This document shows, piece by piece, positions 60,640-60,818 of a DNA stretch of 64,000 bases. Positions within the stretch are counted from its first letter, which is position 1. Each line of letters starts with the position of its first letter. This stretch comes from an uncultured Acidobacteriota bacterium (GTDB taxonomy: Bacteria > Acidobacteriota > JAAYUB01): positions 361,308 through 425,307 of the forward strand of contig CAYPNP010000002.1 in the NCBI GenBank assembly GCA_964412195.1. Reading direction: 5' to 3'. Below the pieces are notes generated by a model, which worked only from the letters and a program-made list of their open reading frames with translations, searched no databases and was not told the DNA's origin. The translations under genes and the position numbers were made by a program.

Positions 60640-60651
60640 ATCGGCAGCAAC

Positions 60652-60778
60652 AATTGCGAATTGCGGATTGCGGATTGCGGATTGAAAACCATTCGTGTGG
60701 TTGGTGTGGTTCGTGGTCCGATTGCGGATTGCGGATTGACTTCGATGTTCGATGTTCGATGTTCGATGTTCGATGTTC
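60652..60778. repeat. cluster of short tandem repeats in the intergenic gap inside the BMC operon
   Basis: Seen directly: (ATTGCGG/A)x4-5 at 60652-60684, GTGTGGTT x2, ATTGCGG x2.5 at 60721-60738, and (CGATGTT)x5 at 60743-60777. Confidence 0.75.
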
Positions 60779-60818
60779 GCTCTGTCCGTGATAGCATGGT
60801 TTCACAAGGAGCATCGTC

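Follow-up and report, generated by a model that had tools for sequence, protein, structure and literature searches.

We analysed a 64,000-nt stretch of DNA (the window) from an uncultured Acidobacteriota bacterium, in which a 179-nt gap (60640-60818) separates an RnfC-like gene from a PduT-like shell gene. Tandem repeats fill nearly all of this gap, as seen both with Tandem Repeats Finder (TRF) and on reading the sequence, and one of the arrays belongs to a family with the heptamer unit ATTGCGG that recurs in genomes of many phyla, in viral contigs and in cultured isolates. With moderate confidence, we favor the view that the gap is a pile-up of widespread, self-propagating heptamer arrays that turn over quickly, and that its effects on the flanking genes would be by-products rather than the work of a dedicated regulator.

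The gap between the RnfC-like and PduT-like genes

A preliminary description of this DNA had called the gap microsatellite-like, and TRF indeed finds adjacent tandem arrays there, five short ones lying back to back within 60618-60779. The flanking genes were also correctly named in that description, as judged by their Pfam matches. The features of the region are as follows.

59290-60639, + strand: RnfC-like gene (Pfam Complex1_51K, SLBB, Fer4_17 and RnfC_N)
60618-60644, + strand: octamer array CGGTGAAT, 3.4 copies (TRF), spanning the RnfC-like stop codon TGA (60637-60639)
60653-60684, + strand: ATTGCGG array, 4.6 copies (TRF), a 32-nt canonical family member, ATTGCGA(ATTGCGG)3ATTG
60692-60715, + strand: 9-mer array TTCGTGTGG / GTGTGGTT(G/C), 2.7 copies (TRF)
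60720-60738, + strand: second, short array of GATTGCG, 2.7 copies (TRF and repeat search)
60741-60779, + strand: TTCGATG (= CGATGTT) array, 5.6 copies with 100% matches (TRF)
60780-60818, + strand: non-repetitive tail, the sole unique part of the gap
60819-61370, + strand: PduT-like tandem-BMC shell gene (two Pfam BMC matches)

The octamer array, absent from the preliminary description, encodes the last seven codons of the RnfC-like gene together with its TGA stop. The ATTGCGG array starts 13 nt past that stop codon, has the modal form of the family (31-33 nt, with ATTGCG at the start and GGATTG at the end) and is 88% identical over 41 nt to positions 7296-7336, in the ybaB-recR gap of the window. 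TTCGATG represents a second heptamer family that is also widely recurrent, (TTCGATG)3 being present in 31 viral contig stretches.

The repeats stop 40 nt short of the PduT-like ATG. Within the tail, a Shine-Dalgarno sequence, AAGGAG (60806-60811), lies 7 nt ahead of the ATG at 60819, and on reading the sequence TGATAGCAT at 60789-60797 is similar to an extended -10 element. Because a promoter consensus scan called no sigma-70 site in the gap, we only infer a promoter from TGATAGCAT; the tail possibly holds a new extended -10 promoter for pduT-like. A similar TGGTATAGT-GTTTCAC is found in the glyQ upstream region. The pattern TGnTAnnnT followed by G(G)TTTCAC, at 60789-60805 and 29514-29531 (upstream of pduT-like and glyQ, respectively), may be a common extended -10 promoter and start-site motif of the organism.

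It had been proposed in the preliminary description that the gap acts as a transcriptional attenuator or an mRNA-processing site. An intrinsic terminator, attenuator or mRNA-stabilising hairpin separating pduT-like from the upstream shell genes would have some precedent within the family itself, given that (ATTGCGG)n-spacer-(CCGCAAT)n arrangements in other genomes often make long hairpins immediately behind stop codons, especially between convergent genes, and are reminiscent of repetitive extragenic palindromic (REP) sequences. In the gap, however, all arrays are direct and without an inverted partner, there is no U-tract, a terminator scan found no terminator-like site and the RNA fold is equal to that of shuffled sequences (z = -0.24). 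Furthermore, Rfam searches at gathering thresholds returned only signal recognition particle (SRP) RNA in the window, with no match in the gap. At this locus the idea is largely refuted and we consider it very improbable.

Among named homologues, the one nearest to the PduT-like protein comes from an Acidobacteria metagenome-assembled genome (75% identity), and relatives have in common the gene order rhomboid / BMC-H / EutN / RnfC-like / PduT-like, which points to a probable acidobacterial source. In relatives at 82% and 74% identity (L210, L211, L213) there is a 4-nt overlap of rnfC-like with pduT-like, whereas the two genes are 10 nt apart in another (L209, 86%) and are separated by 107 non-repetitive nt in a further one (L214, 75%). 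Given the tight junction in relatives, the block is a recent, lineage-specific addition. Ahead of a 98%-identical protein in P0001 the gap is 363 nt, as opposed to 179 nt here, and is known by its length alone. In a 78% relative (L212, GCA_040770025.1) the RnfC-like gene is fragmented and a minus-strand open reading frame (ORF) lies over it; either this locus is degraded or the assembly is of low quality.

Alignment to L209 places all of the extra sequence between ...GAGACCG and the Shine-Dalgarno sequence. At the position of the octamer array, L209 has just one GCTGAATCACGGATTTAG / GCTGAATCACGG, and its RnfC-like gene ends in CGG ATT TAG, with a near-unit CGGATT at the place where the ATTGCGG array now starts. 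The C-terminus of the RnfC-like protein is ...IETATAESRI* in L209 and ...IETGESVSR* here. Judged against these relatives, the block has done away with the gene overlap and reshaped the C-terminus of the RnfC-like protein. A plausible scenario is that a lineage-specific heptamer cluster was wedged into a formerly tight gene junction. The lost overlap is an arrangement that would permit translational coupling, and pduT-like would have come to rely on its own ribosome-binding site and perhaps on the putative promoter in the tail.

The ybaB-recR gap tells of similar change. It is 44 nt long and repeat-free in 70% relatives, and in a relative with 95%-identical RecR (L216, 1-63) an (AGGTCCC)n array, inside which the contig begins, lies upstream of recR. 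At the corresponding position the window has GAGGTCC/GAAGTCC units. The presence of these different units at one locus therefore indicates rapid turnover of unit sequence.

The heptamer family in genomes, viruses and isolates

We scanned one genome per species (596 Gb, both strands) with the pattern ATTGCGRATTGCGRATTGCGG, that is, (ATTGCGR)3. The pattern is present at at least 119 loci, where a random 21-mer with two twofold positions would give about 1 in a collection of this size; the rules given below were derived from the loci listed together with 58 viral loci, and the source genome is not itself among the former. The loci come from approximately 108 assemblies of ten or more phyla (assigned from record titles). 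Acidobacteriota is the largest group among the loci listed, which also include Planctomycetota, Verrucomicrobiota, Bacteroidota, Chloroflexota and Gemmatimonadota, single cases from Nitrospirota, Armatimonadota, Hydrogenedentota, Binatia, WOR-3 and Acidimicrobiia, and a few from Proteobacteria. Contigs of more than 0.5 Mb carry the array in Acidobacteriota, Planctomycetota, Verrucomicrobiota, Chloroflexota and Gammaproteobacteria, and so does a 348-kb contig of Bacteroidota. Complete genomes with the family include OY969763.1 and JAOSKN010000001.1. As several loci are on contigs of roughly 0.35 to 6 Mb, mis-binning cannot explain the breadth of the family.

An exact three-unit ATTGCGG array is also present in 58 viral contig stretches, some with 6-7 arrays, whereas control heptamers of the same composition were found in 17, 9 and 1 stretches. 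Heptamer arrays are thus common in general and ATTGCGG is among the most frequent, in a comparison that covered four other heptamers (the three controls and TTCGATG) in viral contigs only. Two phage-like IMG/VR contigs, L161 (488-7167) and L158, have six to seven exact three-unit matches, some inside one long array, and include an array run of more than 130 nt. In L161, three arrays between co-oriented genes are followed by ATTGAAGAGAAATA, and two of these then by the same ATTGAAGAGAAATATAAATTC-ATG.

Searching proteins with the array-derived peptide PQSAIRN yielded mostly short spurious ORFs rather than host proteins and gives no measure of how often genes carry inserts. It did lead to array-derived ORFs in cultured isolates of Bordetella hinzii and of Chitinophaga niastensis. 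In CP021397.1, a finished genome of B. hinzii, a 74-nt (AATCCGC)10.6 array (L327, 10133-10206) lies within a type II secretion cluster, where 7 nt separate its end from the GTG start codon of a gene for a fimbrial subunit, and a second strain (L328) has an identical array with the same copy number. Gene callers run ORFs through the B. hinzii array, which probably accounts for the label 'major type 1 subunit fimbrin' that the Joint Genome Institute (JGI) gives to ORFs derived from arrays. These occurrences refute the earlier characterisation of the repeat as genome-specific and, since they include finished genomes, show that the family is no product of metagenome assembly.

The further possibility that the repeats are an assembly or sequencing artefact draws on two observations: short-k Logan contigs of the source population break within the arrays (L001-L003 begin inside the TTCGATG array at 60741-60779), and almost all of the genome matches listed are metagenome-assembled genomes. 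Against this, (i) several unrelated projects have produced contigs of megabase scale, and one complete chromosome, with the same arrays; (ii) they are found in the finished B. hinzii isolate genome and are identical in the second strain; (iii) copies lie in-frame in conserved genes with domains intact on both sides; and (iv) the flanks were reproduced exactly in three independent runs. We give this explanation almost no credence.

The variability of the gap bears on another proposal of the preliminary description, namely that it is a contingency (hypermutable) locus at which array copy number tunes or switches PduT-like expression. There is precedent for such control in the Haemophilus influenzae hmw1A and hmw2A genes, where a 7-nt repeat between promoter and gene is reported to differ in length between strains (PMC8262952, PMC12721329). 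In favor of the proposal, the region seems hypervariable among close relatives (the gap measures 179 nt in the window, 363 nt in the relative with 98% protein identity and 0-10 nt in those at 82-86%), the ybaB-recR gap has different heptamers in the 95% relative and the 10.6-copy array of B. hinzii adjoins the start of a fimbrial gene. Against it, the arrays are neither in an ORF nor between -35 and -10 elements but upstream of the putative -10, and copy-number changes would therefore leave the reading frame and the -35/-10 spacing unaltered; since the arrays are periodic, such changes would also keep the same sequence at -35. In addition, the neighbours of family members here are housekeeping genes (recR, glyQ) and no surface antigens, lengths are tightly clustered at 4-4.6 units and copy number is identical in the two B. 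hinzii strains. The hmw repeats are reported to be long, highly variable, located upstream of adhesin genes and of demonstrated effect on expression, whereas ATTGCGG arrays are short, tightly sized and near housekeeping or shell genes. We therefore consider a contingency function improbable.

Structural rules and possible origin of the arrays

A period of 7 dominates at the genome loci listed, with 247 arrays (137 of the ATTGCGG class) as compared with 20 for period 6, 15 for period 8 and never more than 20 for any other period; at control loci (372 kb, picked by RecR/PduT homology), period 7 ties with period 6 at 8 each. The phase is fixed, 98 of 115 exact runs starting with (G)(G)ATTGC and 79 of 115 ending in ATT(G). 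Exact-run lengths peak at 25 and at 31-33 nt with few above 34, which is not the broad spread expected of freely drifting, slippage-driven microsatellites. For other heptamers the peak, at 28-33 nt, is smaller, and the preferred length of about 4.5 units seems to be independent of the motif. At the RecR-selected loci L258, L261, L277 and L288, A+T-rich AATTCTG and AATTATG arrays of 4.6 units (~32 nt) flank recR, the one in L288 directly upstream of the Shine-Dalgarno sequence. We might speculate that a length ceiling near the size required for homologous recombination could keep dispersed copies at about 32 nt.

Arrays in opposite orientation within 250 nt of each other are almost always arranged as (ATTGCGG)n-spacer-(CCGCAAT)n (39+10 pairs, versus 1+0 in the reverse order; 49 to 1, binomial p about 1e-13), with a median spacer of ~40 nt and a range of 19 to 216 nt. 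AGTTCGG pairs (4:0) and TTCGATG pairs (4:0) each have one polarity as well. Arrays also lie within 9 nt of the stop codon of a co-oriented 5' gene more often than expected, both at the genome loci listed (25 vs 7.7) and in viral contigs (14 vs 4.2), and in 15 cases the first base of the array is the final A of TGA or TAA. Flank logos of 193 arrays revealed a degenerate extra unit but no conserved ends and no target duplications. With respect to miniature inverted-repeat transposable elements, the arm-spacer-arm form with fixed polarity is present, while spacers are variable and conserved flanks and duplications were not seen. The unit itself is non-palindromic, giving arrays without self-complementarity; has a GG run only, where G-quadruplexes of the Xanthomonas/Nostoc type take four or more runs of at least three G; and is free of stop codons in all six frames.

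In other genomes, 46% of the arrays are outside ORF calls, well above what typical bacterial coding density predicts. Several intergenic regions, including those in L008 (ATTTTGG, ATTGCGG, GGGGGA, GAGGAC), L034 (ATTGCGG, GATTTGA, CCTGCCT), L095, L103 and others, consist like the operon gap of several different adjacent arrays.

Many arrays fall within ORFs, where the sense strand mostly carries CCGCAAT (mid-ORF, 62 vs 23, p about 3e-5). The ORF caller was crude, over-extending starts through the stop-free arrays and fusing some neighbouring genes, and we accordingly limit the claim of in-gene placement to ten cases checked with Pfam or PDB. A single Pfam domain alignment crosses the array in a Ser/Thr kinase, an ABC ATPase, GlnRS, DnaE, a P-type ATPase and PyrB, and Pfam matches flank it on both sides in UvrA (twice) and LpxB. 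Relative to E. coli TruB, a TruB insert amounts to exactly 11 residues (33 nt) of pure array, and that of the ABC ATPase to ~19-21 residues from two adjacent heptamer arrays. In UvrA (L052), LpxB (L083) and DnaE (L098), translation runs through the two arms and the spacer between them, giving IADCGLR...SAIRNPQ. Array length modulo 3 inside ORF calls (18/15/18) was uninformative, as array boundaries are fuzzy and some ORFs are fused. The sense-strand bias would most simply reflect tolerance, the hydrophilic PQSAIRN being better borne than IADCGLR.

Our favored reading of these data is that arrays would accumulate where they do little harm (past stop codons, between genes and in in-frame surface loops or linkers) and would be gained, lost and replaced between close relatives. 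They would most probably arise and spread through host replication and repair, by slippage and by template switching between arrays at short microhomologies, and phages carrying them could seed arrays across taxa. Several points weigh against this reading. An identical heptamer with the same length and phase across phyla, together with the 49:1 polarity, represents more order than simple slippage predicts and points to selection for function or to a dedicated mechanism. Stop-codon adjacency exceeds what purifying selection alone would give. As for movement, no conserved flanks or target-site duplications were found that would speak for classical transposition, and the CGGATT at the L209 stop codon, a single case, hints at in-situ seeding by microhomology.

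This order could be accounted for if (ATTGCGG)4ATTG were a mini-element of a hitherto undescribed kind, either mobile or actively generated, with a dedicated enzyme or a specific repair reaction adding or copying ~32 nt of heptamer repeat at DNA ends or nicks, and with targeting to the surroundings of stop codons, in-frame survival and transfer between phyla by phages. If repeats were added at each 3' end of a break, the tail-to-tail polarity (ATTGCGG)n-filler-(CCGCAAT)n would result, and in-frame copies in essential genes would persist as PQSAIRN-type peptide loops. We regard the mini-element as a possibility worth keeping in mind, though a doubtful one. As it concerns origin, it can be compatible with the by-product reading.

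The same order could also be indicative of a conserved protein for which the arrays provide periodic binding sites and which regulates the flanking genes. At the RNA level, GGA recurs every 7 nt in AUUGCGG, and the ligand might be of the CsrA, cold-shock or S1 type; at the DNA level, heptad-binding ribbon-helix-helix repressors such as omega come into consideration. In the gap, such a protein would set PduT-like translation or mRNA stability past the RnfC-like stop. Consistent with this idea, the number of units (~4.5), the phase and the pair polarity are all fixed, one motif is shared across phyla and phages, and the position is at stop codons or, in B. hinzii, directly ahead of a start codon. 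Binding of S1, Csp or CsrA has in fact been proposed for TAACTGA heptamer repeats (MacGregor, PMC4679880). On the other hand, arrays face either way with respect to the genes and are also found within coding regions. Arrays of similar size are formed by many unrelated heptamers, which disfavors a single sequence-specific ligand, and the same junctions are array-free in close relatives, so that no conserved regulatory need is apparent. On balance we think a conserved binder rather unlikely. We also dismissed base-pairing of the motif with 16S rRNA, as the two are not complementary.

Other sites in the window and known repeats

The window contains three ATTGCGG-family sites, all intergenic. The recurrences noted earlier at ybaB-recR and, inverted, before glyQ are both real, and these sites, with a further pair of arrays, are listed here.

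7306-7336, + strand: 31-nt member (ATTGCGR)4ATT, 4.4 copies (TRF), in the ybaB-recR gap
left arm 7351-7381 and right arm ~7393-7419, no strand assigned: convergent pair of degenerate TCGGANN heptamer arrays (sequence reading)
29437-29492, - strand: inverted member in the spacer of two divergent genes, 67 nt ahead of glyQ

The first of these lies 4 nt after the ybaB stop codon (7299-7301). When the ybaB-recR gap was folded, CGGACCUCG paired with CGAGGUCCG at a z of only -1.4, an unconvincing structure. At the glyQ site, the ATTGCGG match proper is 29461-29492 within the longer run 29437-29492, which reads on the minus strand as CGGATTG-type units followed by CGGAATG/CGGAGCG units and is 91% complementary to 7304-7335 over 32 nt. 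The 14-mer ATTGCGGATTGCGG, with up to two mismatches, has 8 matches in the window against 0.83 expected, a number reached in 0/100 shuffles, and 8/8 are intergenic, in keeping with the earlier view of a dispersed, intergenic-enriched family. A period-7 array at 28203-28228 was rejected as a member, being ordinary glycosyltransferase coding sequence.

Three direct copies of a ~30-nt sequence (GGGATGGTGCCAGGCTCTGTCACAATT), 38-41 nt apart, are located at 29266-29374, with the minus-strand gene 28694-29185 on one side and the heptamer arrays preceding glyQ on the other; unrelated to the heptamer family, they may represent a small RNA or else repeats of an operator or promoter. A bacterial small SRP RNA (Rfam RF00169, 50.2 bits) is encoded at 5209-5304, just upstream of dnaX. 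Two stretches with less than 52% G+C in this 64% G+C window, 25723-28002 (a membrane protein/glycosyltransferase area) and 62794-63689 (the start of a very large Peptidase_S8/PQQ protein), are within coding regions and are candidates for horizontally acquired DNA.

The preliminary description likened the repeat to REP sequences. REP elements and bacterial interspersed mosaic elements (enterobacteria, pseudomonads) are short, dispersed and intergenic, often near a stop codon and often in inverted, hairpin-forming pairs; the REP unit is an imperfect palindrome, species-specific and tied to RAYT transposases. The comparison does not hold as a classification: ATTGCGG forms a non-palindromic tandem array that spans phyla rather than a species or genus, its copies in the window are solo or direct and without conserved flanks, and we know of no enzyme linked to the arrays; within the window, no RAYT gene was seen. 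Rickettsia palindromic elements, reportedly described by Ogata et al. in 2000, are said to lie in-frame in conserved genes, adding short peptides without destroying the protein. They are 100-150 bp long, lack tandem heptamers and are confined to Rickettsia, whereas ATTGCGG inserts range from 33 nt (one array) to ~100 nt (arm-spacer-arm). Both systems may serve as functional analogies, REP for the stop-proximal hairpins and the Rickettsia elements for the in-frame inserts.

Further precedents are other heptanucleotide repeats. Tandem 7-nt units are the most over-represented of the longer simple repeats in prokaryotes (Mrazek and co-workers 2007, as related in PMC4679880 and PMC4692102), which describe them as mostly non-coding and phylogenetically scattered and give slippage tied to a 7-nt polymerase contact as the proposed cause. 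The ATTGCGG (4.6 and 4.4 copies) and TTCGATG (5.6 copies) arrays of the window, being head-to-tail 7-nt units in at least three copies, are of this class. What sets ATTGCGG apart is its recurrence across phyla, with fixed phase, ~32-nt length, fixed pair polarity and in-frame placement in conserved genes; fixed phase and length, polarity and in-gene placement are not reported in the papers available to us.

In Xanthomonas and Nostoc, GGGAATC and GGGGA(C/T)T, respectively, form arrays of about four units, ~90% of them intergenic (Rehm et al. 2015, PMC4692102). These are nearest the stop codon of the 5' neighbour, some overlapping it, some form inverted pairs, and between the same gene pairs of related species their length and sequence vary (PMC4692102). 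Our arrays resemble them in unit number, intergenic and stop-proximal position, inverted pairs and variability between relatives. However, the Xanthomonas and Nostoc repeats are G-rich, form G-quadruplexes in vitro and are genus-restricted, whereas ATTGCGG has only GG runs and spans many phyla and phages. TAACTGA repeats occur in Beggiatoaceae, cyanobacteria and some Bacteroidetes, again one heptamer in distant phyla with no evident transfer mechanism (MacGregor 2015, PMC4679880). They resemble the ATTGCGG family in being cross-phylum, intergenic, mixed with other heptamer arrays and associated with assembly breaks, but TAACTGA contains stop codons and lies just upstream of starts, whereas ATTGCGG is stop-free, lies just after stops and enters genes.

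A literature search with all rotations of the ATTGCGG/CCGCAAT motif and with the encoded peptides, which was not exhaustive, found no mention of them. The heptamer class is known, and its over-representation, noted since 2007, is still unexplained; the ATTGCGG member, its breadth and its structural rules appear to be new. Any mechanism has to explain one sequence across phyla and phages, the ~32-nt length, the phase, the start at stop codons, the polarity and the clean 33-nt in-frame insertion into genes such as truB. Since the family is present in cultivable B. hinzii and Chitinophaga niastensis, the question is experimentally testable. In practical terms, the arrays break short-k assemblies, spawn spurious ORFs such as the JGI 'fimbrin' and put PQSAIRN/IADCGLR peptides into conserved proteins. 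For the organism studied here, the block separates a shell gene from the neighbour that it overlaps or abuts in relatives, and the stoichiometry of the shell proteins may change as a consequence.

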